Assembly: GCA_037138055.1 (NCBI GenBank)
Contig: JBAXJB010000003.1
Span: 5,755-69,754, forward strand
Length of the DNA: 64,000 nt
Direction of reading: 5' to 3'
Source: Alphaproteobacteria bacterium
GTDB lineage: Bacteria > Pseudomonadota > Alphaproteobacteria > Paracaedibacterales > CAITNM01
Shown piece after piece: positions 4,176 to 18,299 of this stretch (its first letter is position 1; each line of letters opens with the position of its first letter). The notes under the pieces were generated by a model, which worked only from the letters and a program-made list of their open reading frames with translations, was not told the DNA's origin and made no database searches. Made by a program: the position numbers and the translations under genes.

Positions 4176-5083
4176 TTTTTATAATCAGAAACATCAATAT
4201 CAACCTGCATTGACAAGCCAACTTGCAAAGGATGAAGTTTTAATTCTTCTGGATCAAGCTCAATTCGAACAGGAAGCCGTTGAACAACTTTTATCCAATT
4301 ACCTGTTGCATTTTGCGCTGGAATAATAGCAAAAGCAGCCCCTGTACCACCTGCAATACCAACAACTCTTCCATGAAAAATCACCGAAGAACCGTAAAAA
4401 TCTGCCGTGAGTTTGGCTGTTTGCCCCGCTTGAACCTTTCGCAACTGAACTTCTTTAAAATTAGCATTCACATGCATATTTTGCATTGGCACCACTGACA
4501 TTAAAGCTGAACCTGGCTGCACTCGTTGCCCCAATTGCACCTGACGCTTTGCAATTACCCCATCGATGGGCGAATGAACAGTTGTACGATCAAAATCAAC
4601 TTGCGCTTGCTCAAGGGAAACTTGAGCAATATCAAATACAGCTTGCGCTGCCTTAAAAGCATTTTTAGCATTGCTTACTTCTTCTGCAGAAACAGAACCT
4701 GACTTAGTGAGCGCTTGTCTGCGATCTGAAATTAGTTTTGTACGGTCTAAGTCTGCTTGTGCTTTACTAAGGTCAGCTTTAGCACGCGCAAGCACAAGAC
4801 GTGCATCTGTATCATCAATATTAACTAATACATCACCTGCATTTACAACGCTGGTATCTTTATAATGAATTGCTTTCACAATGCCACCAACTAATGAAGT
4901 AACCTGAGCAATTTCTGCACCTACATAAGCATTGTCAGTAGTTACATGCTTTGAACTCACAAAAAAGTAATAAACAAAAAAAACAAGAGCCATTAAAAAA
5001 ACACATAACCCAAGCAATACAAATAAACTTTTTCGTTTGTTGTCTTTATCAATTTTTACGCAATTAAACAATTTATTTTTCAT
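4172..5083 (-). CDS. emrA: HlyD-family membrane fusion protein (EmrA-like)
   Basis: Single N-terminal TM segment. TTDNAYVGAEIAQVTSLVGGIVKAI...GDVLVNIDDTDARL is a lipoyl/barrel-sandwich motif, followed by a coiled coil (AKADLSKAQADLDR). It is translationally coupled to emrB. Confidence 0.85.
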   Translation of the reverse strand: MKNKLFNCVKIDKDNKRKSLFVLLGLCVFLMALVFFVYYFFVSSKHVTTDNAYVGAEIAQVTSLVGGIVKAIHYKDTSVVNAGDVLVNIDDTDARLVLARAKADLSKAQADLDRTKLISDRRQALTKSGSVSAEEVSNAKNAFKAAQAVFDIAQVSLEQAQVDFDRTTVHSPIDGVIAKRQVQLGQRVQPGSALMSVVPMQNMHVNANFKEVQLRKVQAGQTAKLTADFYGSSVIFHGRVVGIAGGTGAAFAIIPAQNATGNWIKVVQRLPVRIELDPEELKLHPLQVGLSMQVDIDVSDYKK

Positions 5084-5138
5084 TAGTTTTCCTTGATACT
5101 AACACTAGAATATCAATTGTCTTTATAGACTAATTGCT

Positions 5139-6140
5139 CTAATAACCAGCATGAGAATGAGAAACTGCATCACTTCCAGTTTCTGCTATTTCTGCCCCCG
5201 TTAAAGCATTCAGTAATTTTGAGGCATTGAGATACTGTAAATTCTCACTCAAATTTGGAGAACCGTTAACCATTGCAACAGGAACCTCTGAAGACCAAGC
5301 CAAGCGTATAGGCAAACTTAACGACCCAGCAATATCAAGCTTACTCAAAATAATATGTCGAACTCCAAATTTTTTAATAAAACTCACATAATCAGGAGAC
5401 AAACTTACACAACCATCACATGGCACAACAAGCACGGGATCAAAAACAAACTTTTGTGCAGAAAGTAACCAATTTAAATCGTCAGAATTTTTTAGATTAA
5501 CACCTTGGGTGTCAATTAATTTAATAACATCTGTTTGATTTTTAATATTTTCCTGTAAAGAAAGCCAACCTTCTTGGCCAAAGTAGTAAGGTACATCTAA
5601 TTTGTGAGCATACGCTTGCAATAGGCCTTGACCAGATGTTTTTATGGTATCGATATTATAAATTTCAACAGCGCGATCACTTGCTTTTAATAAAGCTGCA
5701 ACTTTAGCCAGAATTTGCGTTTTGCCCACACCAAAAGAGCCCAAAAACACAACGGGTTTTAGACCCAAGATTTTGCGTATCCATTGAGGTTCAAAATTTA
5801 GACACTCAGATAGAGATTCAGCAATATTAATTCCAGTCAGTGTTAAATAAGGAGACAAGCACTTTAGCCAGAAATCTTGAAAATCCTGTCCAAGGTAATG
5901 TGAACTGCAAATTTCTTCGACCATTCGAATAGCTGACAAAGGATTATCAATACGATTTTTCTCAGCCTTTCTAAGAGATGGCACCAGAATAGGCTCTTCC
6001 CCTTCAAAAAGAGCTACGGTAACACGAACTTGATTATTAATTTCTTCTGTTCGTTCTATTGCGACATCTTCACCGAAGCGTTTTTTGACTTCTTGAAGAG
6101 CCTCATTTAATGTAGGAGCCGTAATTGTAATTTTTTGCAT
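5139..6140 (-). CDS. flhF: FlhF-like SRP-family GTPase
   Basis: N-terminus MQKITITAPTLNEALQEVKKRFGEDVAIERTEE resembles the FlhF B-domain. Motifs are G1 FLGSFGVGKT, G3 DTQG and G4-like ILSKLD. It is 333 aa and lacks an Ffh M-domain or an FtsY acidic domain. Confidence 0.6.
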   Translation of the reverse strand: MQKITITAPTLNEALQEVKKRFGEDVAIERTEEINNQVRVTVALFEGEEPILVPSLRKAEKNRIDNPLSAIRMVEEICSSHYLGQDFQDFWLKCLSPYLTLTGINIAESLSECLNFEPQWIRKILGLKPVVFLGSFGVGKTQILAKVAALLKASDRAVEIYNIDTIKTSGQGLLQAYAHKLDVPYYFGQEGWLSLQENIKNQTDVIKLIDTQGVNLKNSDDLNWLLSAQKFVFDPVLVVPCDGCVSLSPDYVSFIKKFGVRHIILSKLDIAGSLSLPIRLAWSSEVPVAMVNGSPNLSENLQYLNASKLLNALTGAEIAETGSDAVSHSHAGY

Positions 6141-6205
6141 ACGTAAACCGAAATTTTACTGATTGTGAATTATCATGACATTAGATTAAGTGTAAGAGTT
6201 ATCGG

Positions 6206-6565
6206 ATGAGTTTTACAATACGTTTGCTAATTTGGTTTAAAAGTAATTTTGTAGGTAGTGATAGTTATGGTAATCGCTACTACGAAGAGAAACATAAAAA
6301 AACATCTGATGGAAGTAAACCTAGACGTTGGATTGTGTACAAAGGAAACAGTGAAGCAAGCAAAATCCCCCCTGAATGGCATGCTTGGCTACATTACCGA
6401 GCAGACCAACCATTGCAAGGTCAGATTTATGCATGGCAAAAACCACATTTGCCTAACCTTACAGGAACACCATATGCATATAATCCTGAAAACACTCACG
6501 GAAAAGTTATAGAATTAAAAACTAAAAAGAACCCAGTTTACGAACCTTGGAAACCTAATGAATGA
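6206..6565 (+). CDS. NADH:ubiquinone oxidoreductase subunit NDUFA12 (B17.2)-family protein
   Basis: GSDSYGNRYYEEK...RRWIVYKG..EASKIPPEWHAWLHYRAD matches the NDUFA12 family pattern common in alphaproteobacteria. Confidence 0.8.
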   Translation: MSFTIRLLIWFKSNFVGSDSYGNRYYEEKHKKTSDGSKPRRWIVYKGNSEASKIPPEWHAWLHYRADQPLQGQIYAWQKPHLPNLTGTPYAYNPENTHGKVIELKTKKNPVYEPWKPNE

Positions 6566-7526
6566 AAAATATTATGAAGTAGTGGTAGAAGAGCATCACC
6601 ACGACCTTCGCCTAGATAAGTTTCTAACGCTTACCACCCCATTTAGTCGGACACGCATTCAAGACTTATTAAAGTCTAATGCGATTAGAGTTGAGCCTTT
6701 AAAAATTTTCGACGCAAAAACCAAAGCAAAGACAGGCGAGCATTATTTTATTGTTGAACCAGCCGCAATTGAAGCTGACCCACAACCTCAAGACATTCCA
6801 TTGGATATTCTATTCGAAGACGAGCATCTCTTAGTATTGAATAAACCAGCAGATTTTGTGGTGCACCCGGCCCCTGGTCATTATGACGGAACTTTGGTCA
6901 ATGCATTGCTGCATCATTGTGGAGATAGTTTATCTGGTATTGGAGGCGTTAAACGCCCAGGTATTATCCATAGATTAGATAAAGACACCAGTGGGATTCT
7001 TGTTGTTGCTAAAACGGATGCAGCTCATCACGGGTTGTCACAACAATTTCATGACCGCGAAGAACAATTAACAAAAATATATTGGACTATCGTGTTGGGT
7101 CGCCCCTACCCTACTTCGGGGATGATTAATGCTCCAATTGGTCGACACCATAAAGATAGACAAAAAATGGCTGTAAATGCAAATGGTAAGACGGCTCAAA
7201 CTAGCTATAAAGTTTTGAAAGTCTTCACATCACAAAAAGATCCACAAAGTCAGATTAGCTTTGTAGAATGCCAGCTACACACAGGCAGAACACACCAAAT
7301 TCGAGTGCACTTACAACACCTTGGCGTACCTGTTATTGGCGATGAAGTATATGGTAAAAAGCCCAAAAAAGGCTTGTGGCCAGAGAGCGTGTATGCATTT
7401 CCAAGACAAGCTTTGCATGCTTATTCACTATCTTTTATGCACCCCATATTACAAGAACAACTGTCTTTTCAAGCACCCTTAGCCAGTGACATGGAAGAAT
7501 TATTAAAAAATTTGAGTAATGACTAA
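6558..7526 (+). CDS. rluD: RluD/RluA-family 23S rRNA pseudouridine synthase with an N-terminal S4 domain
   Basis: Motifs LRLDKFL (S4), LVLNKPADFVVHPA, IIHRLDKDTSGILVVAKT (catalytic Asp motif) and HTGRTHQIRVHL. It overlaps the upstream gene by 8 nt. Confidence 0.88.
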   Translation: MNEKYYEVVVEEHHHDLRLDKFLTLTTPFSRTRIQDLLKSNAIRVEPLKIFDAKTKAKTGEHYFIVEPAAIEADPQPQDIPLDILFEDEHLLVLNKPADFVVHPAPGHYDGTLVNALLHHCGDSLSGIGGVKRPGIIHRLDKDTSGILVVAKTDAAHHGLSQQFHDREEQLTKIYWTIVLGRPYPTSGMINAPIGRHHKDRQKMAVNANGKTAQTSYKVLKVFTSQKDPQSQISFVECQLHTGRTHQIRVHLQHLGVPVIGDEVYGKKPKKGLWPESVYAFPRQALHAYSLSFMHPILQEQLSFQAPLASDMEELLKNLSND

Positions 7527-7626: not shown

Positions 7627-8520
7627 ATGAAAATATTAAGCATTATATTCCTAAGCATTTTTTGCATGAGTTCAGCTAGCGCTAGCTGGTTCGGAGGCGG
7701 AAGCTCCGCACAAACAAAAACTAAAAATACAAATAGTGGATCTAGCTGGCTAGCTAAAGCAAAAGCAGCAATGCCTGGAAGTAACGCTGCACTTGAGAAA
7801 AATTGCAAAGATCCAAAATTTAAAAAAGCTAATGCAAAGAAGTGTACAGATTTTGCAGCTGCACAAAAAAAGAAAAAAGCAGATGCCGCACTTAAAAAAC
7901 AGTGTAAAAATCCAAAATTTAAGAAAGCTAATGCGAAGAAGTGCCAACATGTAGGTGGCTTACTTGGAAGTATAGGAAATGCGGCATCAGGTGCAGTTAA
8001 AAATTTAAAGACAAAAGCTTCAGGTATGATGACAAAAAAGCCTGCATCATCAGCAAATGCTAAGACTCCACCTGCTAAAAAGAGTTCTATGTTTGGAAAT
8101 ATGAACCCTTTTGCAAAAAAGACCTCAGCTCCTGCTGCAAGCGCCAAGAAGCCTCCTGCTACAATGAGTTCTAGGTTAGCAAGCATGAATCCTTTTGCAA
8201 AAAAGACCCCAGCTCCTGCAACGGATGATGATAGTGCAAGTATAGCTGATGATGATGCAACTGTAGATGATGAAAACACTGCTCCAGAAGATGATGATGC
8301 TGACGCTGCTACAGAAGATGATGATGCTGATGCTGCTACAGAAGATGATGATGCTGACGCTGCTCCAGAAGATGATGATGCTGACGCTGCTACAGAAGAT
8401 GATGATGTTGACGCTGCTACAGAAGATGATGATGCTGACGCTGCTCCAGAAGATGATGATGCTGACGCTGCTACAGAAGATGATGATGCTGATACTGGTG
8501 AGCAAGACGATTCTCAATAG
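7627..8520 (+). CDS. Secreted repeat protein with a basic Lys/Ala-rich N-terminal half and an acidic nonapeptide-repeat C-terminus
   Basis: Signal peptide MKILSIIFLSIFCMSSASA. Duplicated CK(D/N)PKFKKANAKKC and MNPFAKKT(S/P)APA modules. The tail is EDDDADAA(T/P) in about 8 copies. Confidence 0.6.
   Translation: MKILSIIFLSIFCMSSASASWFGGGSSAQTKTKNTNSGSSWLAKAKAAMPGSNAALEKNCKDPKFKKANAKKCTDFAAAQKKKKADAALKKQCKNPKFKKANAKKCQHVGGLLGSIGNAASGAVKNLKTKASGMMTKKPASSANAKTPPAKKSSMFGNMNPFAKKTSAPAASAKKPPATMSSRLASMNPFAKKTPAPATDDDSASIADDDATVDDENTAPEDDDADAATEDDDADAATEDDDADAAPEDDDADAATEDDDVDAATEDDDADAAPEDDDADAATEDDDADTGEQDDSQ
8287..8502 (+). repeat. 27-bp in-frame tandem repeat, 7 full and 1 partial copies (GAAGATGATGATGCTGACGCTGCTACA)
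   Basis: Direct reading gives units starting at 8287, 8314, 8341, 8368, 8395, 8422, 8449 and 8476, with 0-3 substitutions each. They encode EDDDADAAT/P. Confidence 0.95.
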
Positions 8521-9647: not shown

Positions 9648-10925
9648 TTATATAGTTTTTCTCAAGGTTCTTTGTAAAAACCACAAGGCTGGCAATAGTG
9701 TTATTGATGATAATAGAAATAGCACTACCCAGCCAAAATGTGCAGCCACATACCCTGCCCCAATTGATGCTAAAACACGTGATAACGACCCCAGCGAATA
9801 CAGCAACGTAAAGTGACTTGCTACATAAGGGCTTTTGCAAAATAGTGACAAATAGCTAATAAACCCAGTTGCCAAAAGGCCCGATGAAAAACTTTCAATG
9901 CTTAACGTTAAAATAAGTAAATCTGTATGGTGCTGACCAAACGATGCTAGCAGAGCAAATAATGTACACGCTAACATCTGAAATACTGTGGCTAACTGCA
10001 AACAAAAGACAGTACCCCTACGATGCACTATTAATCCCCCGGCAAAGCTACCAAGTAGCATCAGGCCAACCCCATAAACTTTAGTAATAGAAGCGTATTC
10101 AAATTTTGAAAAACCAAGAGAAAACAAAAATGGTGCTCCTAGTGCATTCATTATTGTGCCAGCAACTTTTATTGTTAAAATGAATCCTATAAGGGGTATT
10201 AAAACAGGTGACTTCATTAAATCAATTAGTGGCGTTAAAAAAGTTTCCCGCCAAAACTTATTACTAAGTTTTTTTTGTTTTTGAAGAGCTGGGTCTGGCA
10301 TATTCAGCAACCCAATAATCCCAGTCGCACAACATAGTGCCATAACCAGATACGCCCCTTTCCAGCCCATTATCATAGACAGGTAGACAGCGCCCGCACC
10401 CGAAGTAATCATTCCGATACGAAAACCAATTGATTCTGATGCAGCTCCTCCTCCAACATGGCTTGGGTCTGATGCGTAAATACGTAATGCATCGAGCACA
10501 ATGTCATGGGTAGCTGCGAAAAAACTCACACAGGTTGCGGTGATAACAACGCTCATAAGATGCTCAACTGGGTTAAGCTGCGCCAAAACCACCAAGCTTG
10601 TAATAAGACATATAAGGGCTAGCAACCCGAAACGTTTAATCGGGTGCAAACTTGAAAAAATTGGAAGTTTAACTCTATCAAGAAAAGGGGCCCATAAAAA
10701 TTTCAAAGCATAAGGCAGACTTACAGCCGTAAACATTCCAATAGCTTTTGTATCAAATCCACTCTCGACAAGCCAAATACTAAGAGTTGAAAGGGTAAGT
10801 AAAAATGGAATACCACTAGCAAATCCCATAGCCATTAAGCACAAAAAAACAGGATTGCTGTAAAAGTGAAATACGCGTTTTATTTTAAATATCTGTCGAT
10901 GTAACGATACAATCATTAAACTCAA
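9648..10925 (-). CDS. ampG: AmpG-family muropeptide MFS permease
   Basis: MGFASGIPFLLTLSTLSIWLVESGFDTKAIGMFTAVSLPYALKFLWAPFLDR is the canonical AmpG N-terminal signature. It is 425 aa and polytopic. Confidence 0.85.
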   Translation of the reverse strand: MSLMIVSLHRQIFKIKRVFHFYSNPVFLCLMAMGFASGIPFLLTLSTLSIWLVESGFDTKAIGMFTAVSLPYALKFLWAPFLDRVKLPIFSSLHPIKRFGLLALICLITSLVVLAQLNPVEHLMSVVITATCVSFFAATHDIVLDALRIYASDPSHVGGGAASESIGFRIGMITSGAGAVYLSMIMGWKGAYLVMALCCATGIIGLLNMPDPALQKQKKLSNKFWRETFLTPLIDLMKSPVLIPLIGFILTIKVAGTIMNALGAPFLFSLGFSKFEYASITKVYGVGLMLLGSFAGGLIVHRRGTVFCLQLATVFQMLACTLFALLASFGQHHTDLLILTLSIESFSSGLLATGFISYLSLFCKSPYVASHFTLLYSLGSLSRVLASIGAGYVAAHFGWVVLFLLSSITLLPALWFLQRTLRKTI

Positions 10926-10994
10926 CTAAACTAAATGGATAAACAGCCCGCCTGTGCAGCAGGCATTTATCAACCTTACTTTAAAACAGTAAGA

Positions 10995-11084
10995 TGGCGG
11001 ATGGGGTGAGATTCGAACTCACGAAGAGCTTACACCCTCGCCGGTTTTCAAGACCGGTGCCTTCAACCGCTCGGCCACCCATCC
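10995..11084 (-). tRNA. tRNA-Ser (anticodon UGA), CCA encoded
   Basis: Minus-strand sequence is GGATGGGTGGCCGAGCGGTTGAAGGCACCGGTCTTGAAAACCGGCGAGGGTGTAAGCTCTTCGTGAGTTCGAATCTCACCCCATCCGCCA. Acceptor stem is GGATGGG/CCCATCC. The anticodon stem CCGGT/ACCGG has loop CTTGAAA. There is a long variable arm and T-arm GTGAG-TTCGAAT-CTCAC. Confidence 0.92.
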
Positions 11085-11191
11085 ACATGTGTGAATATAT
11101 AGAAGAATATTGCAGGCTTTTTCTAAAATCGCAAGTCTTTTTACAGCATTGCTCTTCAATTATATCGTTTGTCGCCTTCAAATTTGTAATC

Positions 11192-13366
11192 TTACTTAGT
11201 TTTCATATGATAAACGCCATCCCAATCCGCTGGGGGGGGAGTTTTTTTGAAAGCTTCACATCTTTCAATATAGAGTTCACATGGATCATCTTGGCCAAAT
11301 ATTTTTTGTAAATCGTGAAAAATAGTTAAAGCCTCATCCCAGCGTTGCTCAAGATAGAATCTAAAAGCTTTAGTAAATTCATTACAGAATTTTAGTTGAT
11401 CATCACTTGGCAACACCAAAGGGTTGGAATTTTTCAAAGCAACTAATTCGTAAATGGTAACCCCTTCGTTTTTACCTTTAACCGCAACAATATCTAATGG
11501 GCGAACAACCGCATGATCGTGCAAATGGTGAACTGTTGCTTCACTAAGCATAATATTTGTTCCATAAGCCTTGTTAGCTCCTTCGAGACGTGCAGCCAAG
11601 TTAACGGAATCACCAATAATTGTATAATTCATTCTTTCAGATGATCCTATGTTTCCAACAATCACTTCACCTGTATGAATACCAATTCTTGTTAAAAGCT
11701 CTGGCTTCTTCTCAAATACCCACTTTCGATTAAGATCCAACAATCGTTTTTGACAAAGCAATGCCGTTAAACAACAATTTAGGGAATGGGCATTATCTTG
11801 TTGTGGAGCGCCCCAAAAAGCCATGATTGCATCTCCAATATATTTATCTGTCGTTCCATTGTTTTCAGCTACAATAGAAGTCATTTCATCAAAATATTCA
11901 TACAAGTGTAACACCAGCTTTTCTGCAGGATAAGTTTCACTAATAGTTGTAAAATTGGCAATATCTGAGAAGAAAATTGACAATTGCTTTTTCTTACCGC
12001 CTATTTTTACTTCAACTCCCTTGTCCACAAGTTTTTTTACCAAATTTTTAGGCACAAATTTTCCAAATGAAATAAGGCTTTTCCGCATACGTGAAATAGA
12101 ATTTTGCAGTTTTTGTATTTCTTTAATTCCAGAAACCACTTCAGCCACTGGATCCAAATCAAAATTAGTTATCTTATCGGCCTGTAATGACAGATTATTA
12201 ATAGGTGCAGCTATACGCCTCGCCATAATCGCTATGACTACAATCGAAAGAATTAATATCAGAAGACAAATCAGCAGCGTATTACGTTGTGTAACCTTAA
12301 CAACCCCAATGTATTCATCAATAGGAGTTATCATTAGAAATTCCCACCCTTTAAAGCCTTCCAGAAGGAATTCTTTAAATAGAGCAATATACTCAACATC
12401 TCCTGATGTGAAAATAAAACGTTGCTGTTTATCAATTTGCTTTGCACGATATGCAACTGATGCAGTCTTGTCAGTTAAATCATCTATAGTAACTAATTTA
12501 GTTTCTGTACCAACAACTTTAGAATAGTTTTTTTCAGTGGGATGAGCGACTATTTCACCTTTTTGATTAAGCACCATAGATACGCCTTTTATATCACTTT
12601 TTTGAAGATCAACAGCCAGTTTAGGTAAACCTACAGTGGAAGAAATGACCCCTACAAAGTCTCCAGTATCTGAAAGTAAAGGCACACCACAAGCAATACT
12701 TGGTGCTTGTGTTACATCAGAAACAAAAATATCTGTCCAAATATTCGAACGATTTTGCGCCGTTTTTATGTACCATGGACGATTTTTGTGAACCATGGTA
12801 ATTTGCGCTTCAGGTATTTTTTCTTCGTCTATTTTTTTACCTTCATTGTCTAGATAGATCCATATTTCTGTTGGCTTTACATCGCTTCTATCAACGATTC
12901 TTAAAGCAAACACAGCTTTTTTAGGGAGAATTTTTGCTTGTTCAATACGATAGGTTGTACCTGGTGTTATTGGTTTTACTTGTACAAAATACCCTGACTC
13001 TGTGCCAACATATACACTATCCACAAGCTTATACTGGCGGCAATGTCCCATCATAAATTGAATTAAATCTTTGCTAATTACAGCAGCTTTTGAGGTATCT
13101 CGCACTAAGTACCCACCAAGTTCTGTTGAAGTTAGAACTTCACGAAAATTATCCGCAATACTTGAAACTTCAGAAATACTGGCATTTTCCATTAAACGAT
13201 TCGAAAAATCAACAATTGAACGAGAGTTATTAATATAGGTGTAGGTTACAATGGAAATAGCTGTGATAACCTGTAAAACAAAAAAACTACTTAAAATATC
13301 AAATCTAAGATTTCTACTTTTGAATCTATTCGTTAACACACTGAAAAAACTTTTAATAATCATCAC
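11192..13366 (-). CDS. Membrane-bound class III adenylate/guanylate cyclase with a periplasmic Cache-like sensor and a HAMP domain
   Basis: An N-terminal TM segment is followed by an extracytoplasmic domain of about 300 aa, a second TM segment (LLICLLILILSIVVIAIMA) and then HAMP (RRIAAPINNLSLQADKI). The catalytic core is LSIFFSDIANFTTISE...DKYIGDAIMAFWGAP...RIGIHTGEVIVGNIGSSERMNYTIIGDSVNLAARLEG. Confidence 0.85.
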   Translation of the reverse strand: MMIIKSFFSVLTNRFKSRNLRFDILSSFFVLQVITAISIVTYTYINNSRSIVDFSNRLMENASISEVSSIADNFREVLTSTELGGYLVRDTSKAAVISKDLIQFMMGHCRQYKLVDSVYVGTESGYFVQVKPITPGTTYRIEQAKILPKKAVFALRIVDRSDVKPTEIWIYLDNEGKKIDEEKIPEAQITMVHKNRPWYIKTAQNRSNIWTDIFVSDVTQAPSIACGVPLLSDTGDFVGVISSTVGLPKLAVDLQKSDIKGVSMVLNQKGEIVAHPTEKNYSKVVGTETKLVTIDDLTDKTASVAYRAKQIDKQQRFIFTSGDVEYIALFKEFLLEGFKGWEFLMITPIDEYIGVVKVTQRNTLLICLLILILSIVVIAIMARRIAAPINNLSLQADKITNFDLDPVAEVVSGIKEIQKLQNSISRMRKSLISFGKFVPKNLVKKLVDKGVEVKIGGKKKQLSIFFSDIANFTTISETYPAEKLVLHLYEYFDEMTSIVAENNGTTDKYIGDAIMAFWGAPQQDNAHSLNCCLTALLCQKRLLDLNRKWVFEKKPELLTRIGIHTGEVIVGNIGSSERMNYTIIGDSVNLAARLEGANKAYGTNIMLSEATVHHLHDHAVVRPLDIVAVKGKNEGVTIYELVALKNSNPLVLPSDDQLKFCNEFTKAFRFYLEQRWDEALTIFHDLQKIFGQDDPCELYIERCEAFKKTPPPADWDGVYHMKTK

Positions 13367-13502
13367 TAACTGCCTATATTTTTTATTTTAATTTTCGCTC
13401 CATTACTTAATTGTAAATAAAATGTATTAATTTGTTACTAACAAAAGCGTTAAAATACTTTGCATTCGATAATTTTATAGCTTATTGAACTAAAGGTTAC
13501 CT

Positions 13503-14315
13503 TTACCACTTAAGTGTTGCAGAAAAATAAGTTGCCTTACTTTCATTATCAACTTCATAAGAAGCTGTAATAAGCATTGCATCCATATTGTGTCTTAATG
13601 CGCCTTGAATATCTGTATATTCTGTATCACCTGTCATTAGCACACGATCAGGACATTTTAGTTTCTTCAGTGCTCGAATAAATATTTCAGGAAACGGTTT
13701 ACCAAAGCTAAGCACCTCGCCGCCTAGTTGCTGGTAGCGTTGTGATAATAAACCCGGACGTAAATGCTGTTTTTTCGAACAAAAAGCTAATAAATCAGGA
13801 TTAGCACATATAAATTTCAAATTTCGTTTTATGGCTTGCTTAAAGATTTCATCATAATGAAGAGCAATATCTTTTGGATCCTTCACAGCGTGCGGAACCG
13901 CCAAAGCTAAAATAACATCCGCTTCATGAATATTATCCGTAACACAGTGTAATTTGCTGAGTTCCTGCCATTTTTCCCAGTAGTGAGTATCAATTAGATA
14001 AATTTTTTTTGCGATTTTATACTCATTCTGAATATATTCAAAACAAAGATCACCCGCAGTTAATACTGTGTGGTACAAATCTGTAGGTAAACCACATTGT
14101 TCCAGATTTTTTCTGCAATCTCTCCCTAAAAACGGAGTGTTTGAAATTAAAATAACTGGTTTTTTTAAGGAATTTAAAATTTTTAGCACCTCTAACGCAT
14201 CTCTAAAAATCGCCCCTCCTTCATATAGGACCCCCCATAGATCAAATAAGAAACAGTCATACTTTTCTGAGACGTCACGAAAACCTTTTATAATTTTACT
14301 CATGCTATTTTTCAT
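13503..14315 (-). CDS. HAD-superfamily subfamily IIA hydrolase
   Basis: Motif I is FLFDLWGVLYEGG. ISNTP is the Ser/Thr motif II region. GDTEYTDIQGA is motif IV. Confidence 0.75.
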   Translation of the reverse strand: MKNSMSKIIKGFRDVSEKYDCFLFDLWGVLYEGGAIFRDALEVLKILNSLKKPVILISNTPFLGRDCRKNLEQCGLPTDLYHTVLTAGDLCFEYIQNEYKIAKKIYLIDTHYWEKWQELSKLHCVTDNIHEADVILALAVPHAVKDPKDIALHYDEIFKQAIKRNLKFICANPDLLAFCSKKQHLRPGLLSQRYQQLGGEVLSFGKPFPEIFIRALKKLKCPDRVLMTGDTEYTDIQGALRHNMDAMLITASYEVDNESKATYFSATLKW

Positions 14316-14476
14316 TTTATTAAAATTGTAAAAATTTTTATTTAATTTTTTTTATTACGTGTTAGCATTATAGAGGGAAAGTAAAAACCAAAAATTAAAA
14401 GTATTTATTTTGTGTTAATAATATCCATTATATTATTAACAGTTTAATTTTTTATTAATAAAACAAGTAATTTTAT

Positions 14477-16342
14477 ATGCACAAAGGATTTCCGATGACA
14501 GACAACGACATTATTGTCTCATTTATAGCTACAAATCCTGTATTTAAGATTTTAACACCAACTGATAAATCGCGCTTTATCAGTAAGTTAAGTGTTAAAA
14601 AATATAGTGTTGACGCTGTAATTCACAACAACTTTGATCACAGTTCTTCAGGATTTTTTGTAGTAAATGGGTCAGTTAATTTAAAAAACACAAATTTTGA
14701 AAAAAAAGTTAACGCAGGGCATTTCTTTTCTTGCGAAAGTGTTCTTGGGCTGCAAAATCACACAACTAAGGCCACTTGTATTGATGAATGCACAATTATT
14801 TCCCTGTCAGATGGTGCACTAAACACGCTGGTTAATTTAAATCCAGACGCGCTGGGTTATTTTAGCGAAAATACATTTGAAAATTTGGGAATAGTTGAAA
14901 AACAACCAGCCTCTGCCACAAAATTAAAAACATTCACAGAAACTGCTATGTTTGATTTTGAGGGTAGCATTTGGAGTTGGTTAGCCCTGCTTATTTGTAC
15001 TCCAGCACTATATGCTTATATGCAAACTCCTGCAATTTCAAGTGACGCCAGAATATTCCTTACGTTTTTAGCAGTATGCATTTTTATGTGGGTATTTCGT
15101 TTAGTTCCTTATTATATTCCAGCACTATTTACCATACTTGGAACTTTAGCTGTCGATATAGCCCCTGTAAAAGTGGTTTTAAGCGGCTTTTCATCTGAAA
15201 GCTTCATTATGATTATGGCCCTTTCTGCTGTTAGCTTGGTAGTGATCAAATCAGGTATTTTGTATCGAGCCTTAATTAAATTATTATCGATCAGCAAGTG
15301 TAGTTATAATTTCTACAACTTTATTTTATTTTTCATAGGGTCAATACTTACACTCTTTATTCCAGCAATTGTCACTCGTTGCCAAATTATGGCGCAATTA
15401 ACTAATGAGGCTAGAGACTTATTAAATACTAAAAAAACTGATTCGTTCAGCACAAGTTTGGCAGTTACAGGTTTTTTTGGAGCAAGCTTATTCTCAACCA
15501 TATTTTTTACCGGATCGTTAATGAACTTTTTGGTGCAAAATATTTTACCAACCCAAGAACAAACCCAATTTCAGTCATTAGGCTGGATTAAAGCATCAAT
15601 GATGATGGGAGCATTTTTTCTTGTTGGTTATTTAGTAGCATTTTGTGCAGTTTTTTTAAACAAGGAAAAATGCGAACTGAAGAAGGAAATCTTAATTTCA
15701 AAATTAAATGCTATTGGAAAAATCTCAATAATTGAATGGTGCGCAATTTCAGCTGTTGCTTTTTTGAGTGTAGGATTTTTCACATATTTTCAGCACCAAA
15801 TTCACCCTGCTTGGGTTGCCACCATAACTATGGTAGCGCTTGTAGGAGTTGGGGCATTCAGTAAAAAAGATTTTCAAACTGGAATAGACTGGGCATTTAT
15901 CATTTTCATAGCCACTTGCTCTGGAATTGGAGCAACTCTGAATTATCTAGGCTTAAATGATATTATTGCTAAAAATCTTGTTAATCTTTTAGGAACAAAC
16001 TTTAAAGATCCTTTTTATTTTATATCGCTAATAATCATATCAACACTATTGATTAGGATGTTTTTACCAATAACACCTTCTGTGCTCATTCTATGCACAA
16101 TATTTATTCCAATTTCAAACTTCTATAATATTAGCCCCTGGTTAGCCTCTATAGTGATACTAGTCACAGCGGATATGTGGTTCTTACCTTATCAAAACTT
16201 CTTCTATGTTATGTTTGAAGAATTTTCAAGCAGTAATTACAATCAGAAAAAATTTATTTTATTTAATATTATTATGAACATTGTACGTGTTGGGGCAATT
16301 TATTTATCGATGCCTTATTGGTCTAAACTTGGTTTGATGTAA
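14477..16342 (+). CDS. Fusion protein: N-terminal cyclic-nucleotide-binding-like domain plus an anion/Na+ symporter-type permease (DASS/ArsB-NhaD superfamily)
   Basis: Residues about 10-130 follow the cNMP-binding beta-roll pattern (FFVVNGSVNL...GHFFSCESVLG...TKATCIDECTIISL). The usual PBC Arg is replaced (TKAT instead of R-T/S-A). About 480 aa of polytopic permease follow. Confidence 0.65.
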   Translation: MHKGFPMTDNDIIVSFIATNPVFKILTPTDKSRFISKLSVKKYSVDAVIHNNFDHSSSGFFVVNGSVNLKNTNFEKKVNAGHFFSCESVLGLQNHTTKATCIDECTIISLSDGALNTLVNLNPDALGYFSENTFENLGIVEKQPASATKLKTFTETAMFDFEGSIWSWLALLICTPALYAYMQTPAISSDARIFLTFLAVCIFMWVFRLVPYYIPALFTILGTLAVDIAPVKVVLSGFSSESFIMIMALSAVSLVVIKSGILYRALIKLLSISKCSYNFYNFILFFIGSILTLFIPAIVTRCQIMAQLTNEARDLLNTKKTDSFSTSLAVTGFFGASLFSTIFFTGSLMNFLVQNILPTQEQTQFQSLGWIKASMMMGAFFLVGYLVAFCAVFLNKEKCELKKEILISKLNAIGKISIIEWCAISAVAFLSVGFFTYFQHQIHPAWVATITMVALVGVGAFSKKDFQTGIDWAFIIFIATCSGIGATLNYLGLNDIIAKNLVNLLGTNFKDPFYFISLIIISTLLIRMFLPITPSVLILCTIFIPISNFYNISPWLASIVILVTADMWFLPYQNFFYVMFEEFSSSNYNQKKFILFNIIMNIVRVGAIYLSMPYWSKLGLM

Positions 16343-16354
16343 AAAGGGATTATC

Positions 16355-17395
16355 ATGATTAAATTACGCTTATTATTTGTAGGGTTATTTGTGCTTGGTA
16401 GCACCTATTTTTTAGTCAAAGAAAGTATTTCAACACCTAGGATTCTTGTATTACAAAGTTATGGAAGTGATTATTCTTGGACACATGATGTTGATGTTGG
16501 TATCAAGAAAATTTTGGAAAAAGAAAGTACTGTTACCGTAAGATGGCACTATATGGACACAAAAAATCACCCAGAAAAGCATTACTTAGAAAAAATTGGT
16601 ATTGTTAGTAAACGAGTAATAGATCAATTCAAGCCATCCGTGATCATTGCAGTAGATGACGATGCTCAGGAATACGTGACTAAGTACTACAATAACGATC
16701 CAAACATTAAGATTGTTTTTTCTGGCGTAAACGCCACAAGGGAAGAATACGCCTTTGATAAGGCAAATAATGTCACCGGTATTTTAGAACGCTTACCAGT
16801 TGATGGCATTGTTGACTCACTACAGCTACTTGCAGGAACGACAAATACTATAAAAATAATTCATGTAAGTGATGAGTCAAAAACCGTAAAACTTGATGAT
16901 AAGTTTTTGCATGCATATAAAGGATGGAAAAATGTAAAAATGCTTCCTTCACTGCTTGTTTCAACTTTTGATGATTGGAAAATAGCTATTAAAAAAGCCT
17001 GCAAAGACGCTGATTATATCGTTATATCAAATTACAGAAAAATCTATGATGTTAAAGGTAGTGAGAAAAAAGTTCTCCCTAAAGAAATAATGGCATGGAC
17101 TATGACCAATGCTACTAAGCCAATTATAGGAATGAATGCGTTTATATTTGAAGATGGTGCGCGTTTAGCAATAGCAACATCCCCTTACGAACAAGGAGAG
17201 GTCGCAGCACAGTTTGCACTAGATATTATCAAGACAGGCGTTCTACCCCCGCATACTCAAACAAAGCAGTTCGTAGTAGGAATAGATGAAAAAGCTATCA
17301 TGCAAGGTGGAGAATTTTTTGGACTCCCAAAAACTTATGTAGCCTATGCTTTGTATTCAGGAAAATTCAGACAAAAGAAAAGTAATGCAAAATAA
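16355..17395 (+). CDS. Orphan periplasmic substrate-binding protein (ABC_sub_bind/COG2984-like)
   Basis: Signal/anchor MIKLRLLFVGLFVLGSTYF. RILVLQSYGSDYSWTHDV...KPSVIIAVDDDAQEYV...IKIVFSGVN follows the family pattern. No permease or ATPase gene is adjacent. Confidence 0.55.
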   Translation: MIKLRLLFVGLFVLGSTYFLVKESISTPRILVLQSYGSDYSWTHDVDVGIKKILEKESTVTVRWHYMDTKNHPEKHYLEKIGIVSKRVIDQFKPSVIIAVDDDAQEYVTKYYNNDPNIKIVFSGVNATREEYAFDKANNVTGILERLPVDGIVDSLQLLAGTTNTIKIIHVSDESKTVKLDDKFLHAYKGWKNVKMLPSLLVSTFDDWKIAIKKACKDADYIVISNYRKIYDVKGSEKKVLPKEIMAWTMTNATKPIIGMNAFIFEDGARLAIATSPYEQGEVAAQFALDIIKTGVLPPHTQTKQFVVGIDEKAIMQGGEFFGLPKTYVAYALYSGKFRQKKSNAK

Positions 17396-17411: not shown

Positions 17412-18299
17412 TCATAAGGTAGATGTTTGAAGCGCTGAATATTGCAATGCTTTCTTAAGCTTTTCAAAAGCAGAAATTTCTAACTGACGCACACGTTCAC
17501 GAGAAATTGTTAAGTTTTGACTCATTTCTTCAAGTGTTTTAGGTGGTTCATCTAAGCGCCTGCCGATGATAATTTCTTGCTCCCTAGCATTGAGTGCTTT
17601 CATGGCTCCTTGCAATGCGTCACGACGTTTATCGAACTCATCACGCTGGACGATTTGAATTTCTTGATTGTCGCTTTCATCCGCTAACCAATCCATCCAT
17701 TCCATAGTGCTTTCGCTATCATTAATTGGCGTATTTAAAGACGAATCGTGACTTGCTATGCGCTGTTCCATTGACCAGACTTCATCCTCTGACACATTAA
17801 GCTTTAACGCTATTTTTTGTACTAATTCTGGGGTAAGCTGGTCACTGTGAAGCTTACCATCCTTTTCTTGAGCTTCTTGGATAATTGCTCGTTTGGTTTT
17901 TTTTAAGGAAAAAAACAGCTTTTTTTGTGCGGCAGTTGTACCAATTTTTACCAACGACCAGGTATGTAAAATGTAGTCTTGCATGCTGGCCTTAATCCAC
18001 CACATAGCATAGGTAGAAAAGCGAAATCCACGGTCTGGCTCATAATGTTTCATGGCTTGCATCATGCCGATATTGCCTTCAGCAATTAAGTCACTAATAG
18101 GCAGACCATATCCGCGATAGCCTACTGCAACTTTTGCTACTAACTTTAGATGCGCTGCTGCCAATTTTTCCATAGCCTTATGGTCTTGGTTTTCACGCCA
18201 ATCTTTAGCTAGTTTATATTCTTCTTCAAGACTGAGAACCGCAAGGCTTCGAACCTTTTGTACATATTGATGGTGGTCATGATGCTGCTGCAAAATCAT
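17412..18299 (-). CDS. rpoH: RNA polymerase sigma-32 heat-shock factor
   Basis: Motifs AHLKLVAKVAVGYRGYGLPISDLIAEGNIGMMQAMKHYEPDRGFRFSTYAMWWIKA, the RpoH-box-like AAQKKLFFSLKK, and region 4 ISRERVRQLE. Confidence 0.9.
   Translation of the reverse strand: MILQQHHDHHQYVQKVRSLAVLSLEEEYKLAKDWRENQDHKAMEKLAAAHLKLVAKVAVGYRGYGLPISDLIAEGNIGMMQAMKHYEPDRGFRFSTYAMWWIKASMQDYILHTWSLVKIGTTAAQKKLFFSLKKTKRAIIQEAQEKDGKLHSDQLTPELVQKIALKLNVSEDEVWSMEQRIASHDSSLNTPINDSESTMEWMDWLADESDNQEIQIVQRDEFDKRRDALQGAMKALNAREQEIIIGRRLDEPPKTLEEMSQNLTISRERVRQLEISAFEKLKKALQYSALQTSTL

Follow-up and report, generated by a model that had tools for sequence, protein, structure and literature searches.

The question raised by this locus is which of its genes work together. 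The window, a stretch of 64,000 nucleotides from an Alphaproteobacteria bacterium (contig JBAXJB010000003.1, positions 5,755 to 69,754 of the forward strand), encodes a membrane-bound adenylate cyclase (11192-13366, minus strand), a permease whose N-terminal domain has a cyclic nucleotide-binding (CNB) fold (14477-16342, plus strand) and a solute-binding protein (SBP; 16355-17395, plus strand). An earlier note on this DNA had proposed that the three form a self-contained cAMP circuit, in which the cyclase senses an external ligand and its cAMP gates the permease. The open reading frames (ORFs) and their translations were checked, and the window proteins were scanned with the Pfam and NCBIfam hidden Markov models (HMMs); all three genes lie where the note had placed them. 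The nearest public contigs belong to metagenome-assembled genomes (MAGs) labelled Candidatus Odyssella sp. and Candidatus Finniella inopinata, with proteins 96-98% identical to those of the window (the Finniella clade below), and the GC content of about 0.33-0.41 is that of a low-GC, Holosporales-type bacterium. The best explanation of the results is that the functional unit is the permease-SBP pair and not the three-gene set. We put the probability that this pair is an SBP-dependent transporter regulated via its CNB-like domain at roughly one half.

Homologs of the permease and the SBP were found to be adjacent in 83 of the 83 loci that hold both genes. These loci form 68 independent clusters (less than 85% nucleotide identity), here called lineages, which come from several phyla and include Alpha-, Beta- and Gammaproteobacteria, Nitrospirae, Geobacteraceae, Holophagaceae and others. 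Searching with the permease gave 17 loci in genomes and another two on metagenome contigs. They belong to Alpha-, Beta- and Gammaproteobacteria, Thiomargarita, Geobacteraceae, Holophagaceae and a sponge symbiont, and all have an SBP homolog directly 3' of the permease. When the SBP was looked up instead, a permease of the same CNB-DASS type preceded it in three of three cases (Candidatus Odyssella thessalonicensis, Candidatus Magnetomonas and a Rhodocyclaceae MAG), and in a metagenome scan the permease adjoined the SBP in every assessable locus at 32% SBP identity or above. PF04392 proteins at 26-31% identity had no such permease nearby in that scan, and the pairing is therefore specific to this SBP subfamily.

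The spacing of the two genes is tight. From the permease stop codon to the longest SBP reading frame, the gap ranged from -73 to +12 nt and mostly from -25 to +12 nt (20 pairs in 18 loci), which suggests that the two genes are translationally coupled; in the window the SBP frame begins 12 nt past the permease stop. The order is reversed in two loci, SBP first and permease second, with adjacency kept, and a betaproteobacterial MAG (L010, 9787-15546) carries two permease-SBP pairs in tandem. Permeases that lack the CNB domain (L019, L032 and L077) retain the SBP. No ABC membrane or ATPase gene was found beside the pair in the window or in any related flank examined, and no conserved third gene accompanied it in the examined loci, except for a HAD hydrolase in Holosporales-like contigs. 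Because the adjacency is universal and no other neighbouring gene is conserved, the permease and the SBP are regarded as a self-contained two-gene module. The 83 loci, the gaps and the SBP-side reciprocity together present an SBP gene constantly linked and coupled to a secondary carrier from which an ATPase is absent. The earlier note was right that the SBP has no ABC partner genes, in the window and in the examined related loci alike; its description of the protein as an orphan is refuted, as the permease is its constant genomic partner.

The adjacency could in principle be incidental, with the SBP serving an ABC importer encoded elsewhere and the permease acting as an ordinary stand-alone DASS carrier. 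Proteins of PF04392 (COG2984) are normally ABC components, and the inspection covered part of each genome. However, an invariant pairing across 68 lineages, with frames that overlap or nearly abut where measured and that is recovered with either gene as the query, in flanks none of which contained an ABC importer gene, makes such a coincidence highly improbable.

The SBP (346 aa) scored 29.8 bits on the ABC_sub_bind model (PF04392), above the cut-off of 25.9. Its AlphaFold2 (AF2) model, with a pLDDT of 95.9, consists of a continuous helix (residues 2-26; 16358-16432, plus strand) followed by two alpha/beta lobes with the type-I binding-protein fold. The top Foldseek matches of the model were three solved PF04392 proteins, 3LKV, 3LFT (Trp-bound) and CD0873 (6HNJ), and the assignment in the earlier note to a periplasmic protein of the ABC_sub_bind type is thus supported by both the HMM score and the modelled fold. 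At the sequence level the similarity is marginal: a 68-sequence profile reached 3LKV at an E value of 5e-4, and the single SBP sequence gave zero matches to PDB sequences with phmmer. The only hydrophobic segment comprises residues 2-22. Every family member likewise has one N-terminal hydrophobic helix, followed by the motif KPR[IV]L[IV]LHS, and the lipobox cysteine is present in none. Judged from the model and from hydrophobicity, the helix is likely an uncleaved membrane anchor, the lobes being predicted to lie in the periplasm. The protein shares its Pfam family and fold with the SBPs of ABC importers such as TrpX (3LFT), 3LKV and Clostridioides difficile CD0873, but it is only about 13-16% identical to them, has the N-terminal anchor helix and is partnered by a permease rather than by ABC components. 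The subfamily is unusually conserved across phyla, with a mean column identity of 47% in the family alignment against 25-30% for the partner permease, and its conserved motifs include HS-Y..DY.W, HYMDTK, DDDAQ, SNYRK and SPYEQGE (window residues 35-42, 66-70, 101-105, 226-228 and 276-282).

The permease (621 aa) scored 46.8 bits on CitMHS (PF03600), against a cut-off of 31.9. On the NCBIfam dass model (TIGR00785) it scored 72.2 bits against 198.6, with an end-to-end alignment, and PF00939 (Na_sulph_symp) was unreported for the window sequence, while relatives scored 75-113 bits on PF00939 against a cut-off of 27. The AF2 model, built with 115 family sequences, had a pLDDT of 92.1 and a pTM of 0.90. 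Its membrane domain (residues ~161-621; 14957-16339, plus strand) matched the solved DASS carriers NaCT, DiT2.1 and VcINDY in Foldseek with TMt values of 0.80-0.82, and ArsB and the TRAP protein SiaQM more weakly. A membrane-only family profile searched against the PDB found DiT2.1 (3e-26), LaINDY (4e-23) and VcINDY (1e-14). The call of a DASS/ArsB-like permease made previously was correct in that CitMHS passes its cut-off and the modelled fold is that of DASS. The first hairpin carries the family motif P-[ST]-x-N-G-R, which is PAIVTR in the window and lines up with PSNSAR of LaINDY and PSTTAR of DiT2.1, two sequences that its P-S-x-x-x-R pattern resembles. The second hairpin carries a PYQ motif. 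In VcINDY the Na+/substrate site consists of Ser-Asn-Thr motifs at the tips of the two hairpins; canonical SNT motifs are not evident in the permease. Unlike the members of DASS/SLC13 such as VcINDY, LaINDY, NaCT and DiT1/DiT2, to which it is about 14-17% identical, the permease carries a CNB-like domain at its N-terminus and has the SBP as an obligate neighbour.

The family is large. A word-indexed search yielded 12 permease relatives and an exhaustive profile search 461 cluster representatives below an E value of 1e-30. Most are 600-640 aa long and align from about residue 10-20, which implies that they share the N-terminal domain; shorter ones of about 470-490 aa lack it, and others have longer N-termini. 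Relatives exceed the Pfam cut-offs for cNMP_binding and Na_sulph_symp alike, and the fusion of the CNB domain to the DASS domain is genuine. Among the longer members, P0050 (823 aa) and P0042 (842 aa) have extra N-termini that give GAF-CNB-DASS and 4HB_MCP sensor-CNB-DASS variants, and P0145 (1380 aa) joins a CstA carbon-starvation transporter to a canonical CNB domain and a DASS domain. The long members P0042, P0050, P0087, P0088, P0097 and P0145 were considered as candidate SBP fusions and rejected, as they carry GAF, 4HB_MCP, CstA or unknown N-termini. A second, CNB-less permease paralog of 494 aa lies between the SBP gene and rpoH in two contigs that are about 92-95% identical to the window (L026, 5073-6557, and L027, 1423-2907, both minus strand); it is about 30% identical to the family and above the Na_sulph_symp cut-off, and the window has no such paralog. 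In Candidatus Odyssella thessalonicensis (L021, 4157-5988) the permease is annotated as a pair of ORFs, 420 and 212 aa long, that overlap; the cause is a frameshift, a pseudogene or a sequencing error.

How the two proteins might work together is suggested by these folds. The N-terminal helix would tether the SBP at the outer face of the inner membrane, where it would capture a periplasmic solute and pass it to the permease, a DASS-fold carrier of the presumed elevator type, and an ion or exchange gradient would drive the solute across the membrane. The CNB-fold domain, on the cytoplasmic side, would tune transport by binding a small intracellular ligand. We infer the hand-off and the direction of transport. 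Three kinds of SBP-dependent secondary transporters have been described, namely TRAP, TTT and, in 2025, TAXI-GltS (PMC12344293). Like TRAP transporters (DctPQM, SiaPQM), the pair combines a periplasmic SBP with an elevator carrier, a DASS-fold membrane domain, adjacent genes and the absence of an ATPase (PMC12344293), and the permease model matches the TRAP protein SiaQM (7qha_B) at a TMt of 0.70. Unlike TRAP, it has no Q subunit, a DctQ-like small subunit being absent along with any conserved third gene; the SBP is a type-I PF04392 protein with an anchor helix and not a DctP or TAXI protein; and the permease scores on DASS/Na_sulph_symp, with weak DctM matches, and has a cytoplasmic CNB-like domain. 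Another related system is TAXI-GltS of Bordetella pertussis (BP0403), in which an SBP is translationally coupled to a non-TRAP elevator carrier of the Na+-symporter type, and which was likewise proposed as a new class from gene linkage and modelling (PMC12344293). It differs in that the families here are PF04392 and DASS, in that TAXI-GltS includes fusions, of which none was found here, and in that GltS has no regulatory domain. The authors of that study suggested that elevator carriers may be predisposed to SBP recruitment, and predicted and asked for further classes (PMC12344293).

Several observations weigh against SBP-dependent transport by the pair. Of the solved structures, DiT2.1 and LaINDY stand nearest to the membrane domain, and both act as exchangers, which does not obviously fit with delivery by an SBP. 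The permease of the Finniella clade strays from the family consensus at both the hairpin (PAIVTR) and the cassette of the CNB domain. An SBP-permease fusion occurred in none of the top 150 permease or the top 120 SBP homologs. Between the same lineages the SBP is about 40-47% identical and the permease about 26-30%, and the higher conservation of the SBP could reflect a conserved signalling interface instead. Furthermore, characterised PF04392 proteins serve ABC importers (COG2984/COG4120/COG1101; PMC5615194) and bind aromatic amino acids (PMC10443332).

Whether the N-terminal domain of the permease (residues ~8-140; 14498-14896, plus strand) is a CNB domain at all had to be considered, as the window protein scored 17.2 bits on cNMP_binding (PF00027; E 0.005), below the cut-off of 27.5. 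Relatives pass it, among them P0014 (42.9 bits), P0042 (37.1 bits) and P0050 (30.3 bits). All five members of a 5-sequence family profile match PF00027, with a best E value of 2.4e-10, and the profile matched the CNB domains of PKA-R, PKG, MlotiK1, HCN and CRP in the PDB (single-domain E ~1e-6). In the AF2 model, beta-roll strands span residues 38-111 and helices residues 112-136, with a pLDDT above 90 over residues 10-135, and the domain superimposes on the CNB domain of MlotiK1, its closest structural match, with a TMt of 0.85, those of HCN and PKA-R being matched as well. By the modelled structure, then, the N-terminal domain does have the CNB fold, although the window protein falls short of the cut-off; the fold and the family profile bear out a domain that had been recognised only by its pattern. 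Selection was evaluated as dN/dS against four relatives, with the comparisons to L004 and L005 left out as out of frame. The values were 0.12-0.27 for the CNB domain (residues 8-140) and 0.065-0.09 for the membrane domain. The domain is thus under purifying selection, and the ratio indicates a working domain.

The phosphate-binding cassette of this domain is not canonical. In the window it comprises residues 84-101 (14726-14779, plus strand), F-S-C-E-S-V-L-G-L-Q-N-H-T-T-K-A-T-C. The cassette columns were compared over 110 family representatives from outside the Finniella clade, with the spacing from glycine to arginine (G+10) taken from PKA RI-alpha. The family cassette reads [FLV]-G-x-E-A-x-x-G-x-x-x-Y-x-x-[TSD]-A-x-A, with the first glycine in 100, the glutamate in 97, the tyrosine in 85 and the last alanine in 83 of the 110. 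The arginine that binds the cyclic phosphate, R209 in PKA RI-alpha and R82 in CAP, is conserved in none of the 110; its position holds tyrosine in 85 and histidine in seven. The residue directly after the glycine varies, with glutamate in 51 of 110, and the position that follows is glutamate in 97, so that the conserved cassette glutamate may be shifted by one residue. The Gly-Glu pair of CNB cassettes is the contact to the ribose 2'-OH. The window protein has S85, C86, E87, H95 and K98 and zero arginines in residues 81-118, and its 89%-identical relative has tyrosine at position 95. That the cassette lacks its arginine had been stated correctly; by the G+10 spacing, however, the equivalent residue is H95 and not T97 of the 'TKAT' stretch to which the earlier note had pointed. 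As judged from the alignment, loss of the arginine is a family-wide property and not decay in the window genome.

As the phosphate-binding arginine is absent across the whole family, canonical binding of cAMP or cGMP is unlikely. The CNB ligand is probably a ribose-containing molecule, because the cassette retains its glycine and glutamate, with tyrosine or histidine replacing the arginine. Since the CAP-like fold of Popeye-domain proteins accommodates cAMP although the canonical arginine cassette is missing, the sequence is compatible with cAMP as a ligand as well. We nevertheless consider it doubtful that cAMP is the physiological ligand of the domain. The best documented parallel is the kinetoplastid PKA, in which loss of the arginine together with a cassette glutamate abolished cAMP binding and switched the domain to nucleosides (PMC10959531). 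Here too a polar residue stands in for the arginine and the cassette has an additional glutamate, but this glutamate is at G+2, where it is at G+3 in the kinetoplastid protein (PMC10959531), and the replacement is tyrosine or histidine. MlotiK1/SthK, HCN/CNG and sperm SLC9C1 are likewise membrane transport proteins with an attached CNB fold. Their domains, however, keep the canonical G-E...R-[ST]-A cassette and are cAMP or cGMP binders; that of the permease has tyrosine or histidine for the arginine and precedes a DASS carrier. Fusions of CNB domains to transporters, including MFS-CNBD proteins, exist but are uncharacterised (review, PMC10710835).

The same cassette raises the possibility that the domain binds no ligand, and is a structural, oligomerisation or docking module left from an ancestral cNMP-regulated transporter. 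The family-wide loss of the arginine would agree with this, as would the further loss of the cassette glycine and the next glutamate in the window clade, the evolution of the domain at about three times the rate of the membrane domain, and the existence of family members that lack it or carry GAF, 4HB_MCP or other N-termini in its place. Distant relatives with canonical cassettes, P0012 (...PRSAS...) and the CstA-CNB-DASS fusion P0145 (...RRTAS...), are consistent with a canonical ancestor. However, the replacement motif is kept across phyla, at the counts given above, as expected of a pocket that is re-tuned and not decayed, and an omega of 0.12-0.27 speaks for constraint, so that a ligand-free domain is judged improbable. 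The L003 locus (4797-7448, 9730-10428 and 10445-12292) encodes P0012, an 883-aa protein with a 300-aa linker and without an adjacent SBP, and, 2-3 kb away, a Crp-like regulator and a CHASE2 cyclase. P0012 may be a DASS carrier under genuine control by cAMP.

The third gene of the proposed circuit encodes a protein of 724 aa in which a first transmembrane segment, a Cache-like periplasmic sensor, a second transmembrane segment, a HAMP domain and a catalytic domain (residues 459-636; 11459-11992, minus strand) follow one another. Guanylate_cyc (PF00211) scored 92.4 bits and HAMP 25.9 bits, both above their cut-offs; dCache_1 reached 36.2 bits, under its cut-off of 45, and an MCP-like PDC model was likewise just under its own. 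Hydrophobic segments at residues 22-45 and 355-390 flank a periplasmic domain of about 310 residues. All six catalytic residues are present, D468, K508, D512, T582, N589 and R593, which we take to be the two metal-binding aspartates, the substrate-binding lysine and threonine, and the asparagine and arginine of the transition state. By its residues the protein is a complete class IIIb adenylate cyclase, and the HMM scores, the two membrane segments and the catalytic set agree with the earlier description of a membrane class III cyclase with a large periplasmic sensor. Taken over the three proteins, the domain assignments by HMM thus held for CitMHS, Guanylate_cyc, HAMP and ABC_sub_bind, and fell below the cut-off for dCache_1 and cNMP_binding.

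A cyclase gene was found in the flanks of ten of the 68 lineages, counting the Finniella clade and L011, in a summed flank of 415.5 kb, or about one per 41 kb. We judge this frequency to be several-fold over a plausible genomic background. Nine of the ten lie within 1.5 kb of the pair, most on the same strand; the tenth, a receiver-domain (REC) cyclase in L011, is 8.7 kb away. A membrane class III cyclase is immediately beside the pair in L030, L032, L035, L037, L044, L049, L061 and L069, whose GC content ranges from 0.33 to 0.62. Five linked cyclases share the dCache_1-HAMP-cyclase architecture of the window protein; in two, the cyclase domain instead follows a periplasmic domain of the PF04392-like type. 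In L030 the order is permease-SBP-cyclase with a spacing of 12 nt, and the cyclase, also 724 aa, has a catalytic domain 59% identical to that of the window; in L032 the order on one strand is permease-SBP-HAD-cyclase, the catalytic domain is 84.5% identical and the permease has no CNB domain. The cyclase is missing in most lineages, among them L001, a 68%-identical relative that keeps the HAD, permease and SBP genes and has an unrelated 789-aa gene in the place of the cyclase, and Candidatus Odyssella thessalonicensis, in which the HAD, permease and SBP genes are present. In the set of genome contigs a cyclase was adjacent only in the Finniella clade, and the view that the link is limited to one genus was overturned by the SBP-side metagenome scan. 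Three loci first counted as cyclase loci (L010, L014 and L016) contained receiver domains that single-linkage clustering had joined via the REC-cyclase of L011, and they were dropped.

Other sensors take the same place. A histidine kinase with a PF04392-like sensor domain lies beside the pair in L023 (7032-8984), and DUF3369-SpoIIE (PP2C) phosphatases with such a domain in L069 (3-1667) and L077 (1-2562); the two cyclases with a domain paralogous to the SBP, which are joined to TPR repeats, are in L049 (5056-7077) and L061 (5011-7056). Most likely these sensor neighbours report the same external cue as the SBP, and the cyclase looks like one of several interchangeable signalling outputs.

These results bear directly on the cAMP circuit, in which the Cache-HAMP cyclase would sense an external ligand and its cAMP would bind the N-terminal domain of the permease and gate transport, delivery by the SBP being optional. 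The complete catalytic set, the CNB fold that is real and under selection, the recurrence of a sensor cyclase beside the pair in ten of 68 lineages and the linkage of cyclase, HAD, permease and SBP genes in three arrangements (the window, L030 and L032) on low-GC Holosporales-like contigs all speak for it, as does the Popeye precedent. Moreover, no other CNB protein and no other cyclase is encoded within the 64 kb of the window. Against these stand the absence of the phosphate-binding arginine in 110 of 110 representatives, with tyrosine or histidine and an extra conserved glutamate instead; the loss of the cassette glycine and the next glutamate (S85, C86) from the window protein itself; the inability of the kinetoplastid PKA with similar changes to bind cAMP (PMC10959531); the lack of an adjacent cyclase in about 85% of lineages, the 68%-identical relative among them; the permease of L032, which is linked to a cyclase yet has no CNB domain; and the kinases and phosphatases that occupy the position of the cyclase elsewhere. 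In the permeases linked to a cyclase the cassette is of the Tyr type, as it is elsewhere in the family. On balance the circuit is a tentative proposal that we consider somewhat unlikely. Its domains, catalytic residues and recurrent adjacency stood up; its three genes are not a conserved core. Their co-occurrence recurs, so that the neighbourhood is not peculiar to the window, but it is enriched and not conserved.

The sensors also suggest a different role for the SBP. By analogy with LuxP-LuxQ and TorT-TorS, it would be a co-receptor that when liganded docks on a cyclase, kinase or phosphatase, or on the permease as a transceptor, and the permease would transport alone. The greater conservation of the SBP relative to the permease would be explained in this way; sensors recur as neighbours, several of them with a domain paralogous to the SBP, and LuxP and TorT are among the type-I binding-protein folds that Foldseek retrieved with the SBP model. 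However, most loci have no adjacent sensor gene and the permease is always present, sensors with their own SBP-like or dCache domain need no separate SBP, and the short distance or overlap between the two genes suggests that SBP and permease form a stoichiometric complex. We therefore regard the co-receptor role as improbable.

The preferred reading of an SBP-dependent transporter also covers the sensors. In the genus of the window and in at least nine other lineages, a putatively periplasm-sensing adenylate cyclase is encoded alongside the module; its counterpart elsewhere is a kinase or PP2C phosphatase whose sensor domain is SBP-like. For the cyclase-linked lineages cAMP is then a candidate ligand of the CNB-like domain. 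That the module in these lineages, the window included, is gated post-translationally by the cAMP of its neighbour through a new, Arg-less cassette of the Tyr/His type is an unlikely, specific version of this idea; what the two ligands are, and whether cAMP has an effect, are likewise matters of inference.

The remainder of the locus was inspected for further clues. Between the cyclase and the permease, and divergent from the latter, lies a gene for a HAD-IIA hydrolase of 270 aa (13503-14315, minus strand), which scored 144.5 bits on TIGR01459 (cut-off 103.75). An AT-rich intergenic region of 161 nt (14316-14476) separates the HAD(-cyclase) and permease-SBP transcription units. The HAD gene adjoins the pair in every low-GC Holosporales-like contig, and its link to the module is confined to these genomes. 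It is divergent in the window, in L001 (8991-9788), in L021 (3147-4025) and in L026 (1149-1961), and co-directional in L032 (5152-5955), where it is placed between the SBP and the cyclase. The hydrolase might process the transported compound or a nucleotide. The true start of the permease is probably the ATG at 14495 (M7) and not the annotated ATG at 14477; a Shine-Dalgarno-like AAAGGA precedes the former by 7 nt, and it is also where the closest database proteins (615 aa) start. A consensus-based promoter scan of this AT-rich DNA found 35 sites, against 26 +/- 5 in shuffled sequences, and was uninformative; a terminator scan was likewise not above shuffles. The four-gene region is flanked by AmpG (9648-10925, minus strand), RpoH (17412-18299, minus strand), an ABC exporter and CydB. 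Farther upstream, an ORF of 297 aa (7627-8520, plus strand) starts with a stretch that resembles a signal peptide, contains Lys/Ala-rich repeats (KNPKFKKANAKKC twice) and has at its C-terminus an acidic tandem repeat of roughly nine DDDADAATE/APE copies; it may encode a secreted repeat protein; the antisense ORFs that overlap it are repeat artefacts.

Literature searches found no description of a PF04392-DASS pairing or of a CNB-DASS family. The general kinds, an SBP-dependent secondary carrier and a CNB-regulated membrane protein, are known. What sets this variant apart as new is the way its parts are combined, together with the presumed tether on the type-I SBP and the Tyr-type cassette. If the proposed function is true, the module would be a possible fourth class of SBP-dependent secondary transporters beside TRAP, TTT and TAXI-GltS. 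It is widespread, as the 68 lineages and 461 permease representatives attest, and would have drawn its SBP from a family hitherto associated with ABC importers alone. Moreover, a systematically re-tuned CNB cassette beside sensor cyclases, kinases and phosphatases offers a tractable system for two questions, how transporters are controlled post-translationally by second messengers or metabolites, and what ligands Arg-less CNB domains bind. Finally, the Holosporales-type bacterium to which the window belongs is a member of a group of protist endosymbionts, and the gene set may bear on the uptake of host-derived nutrients.

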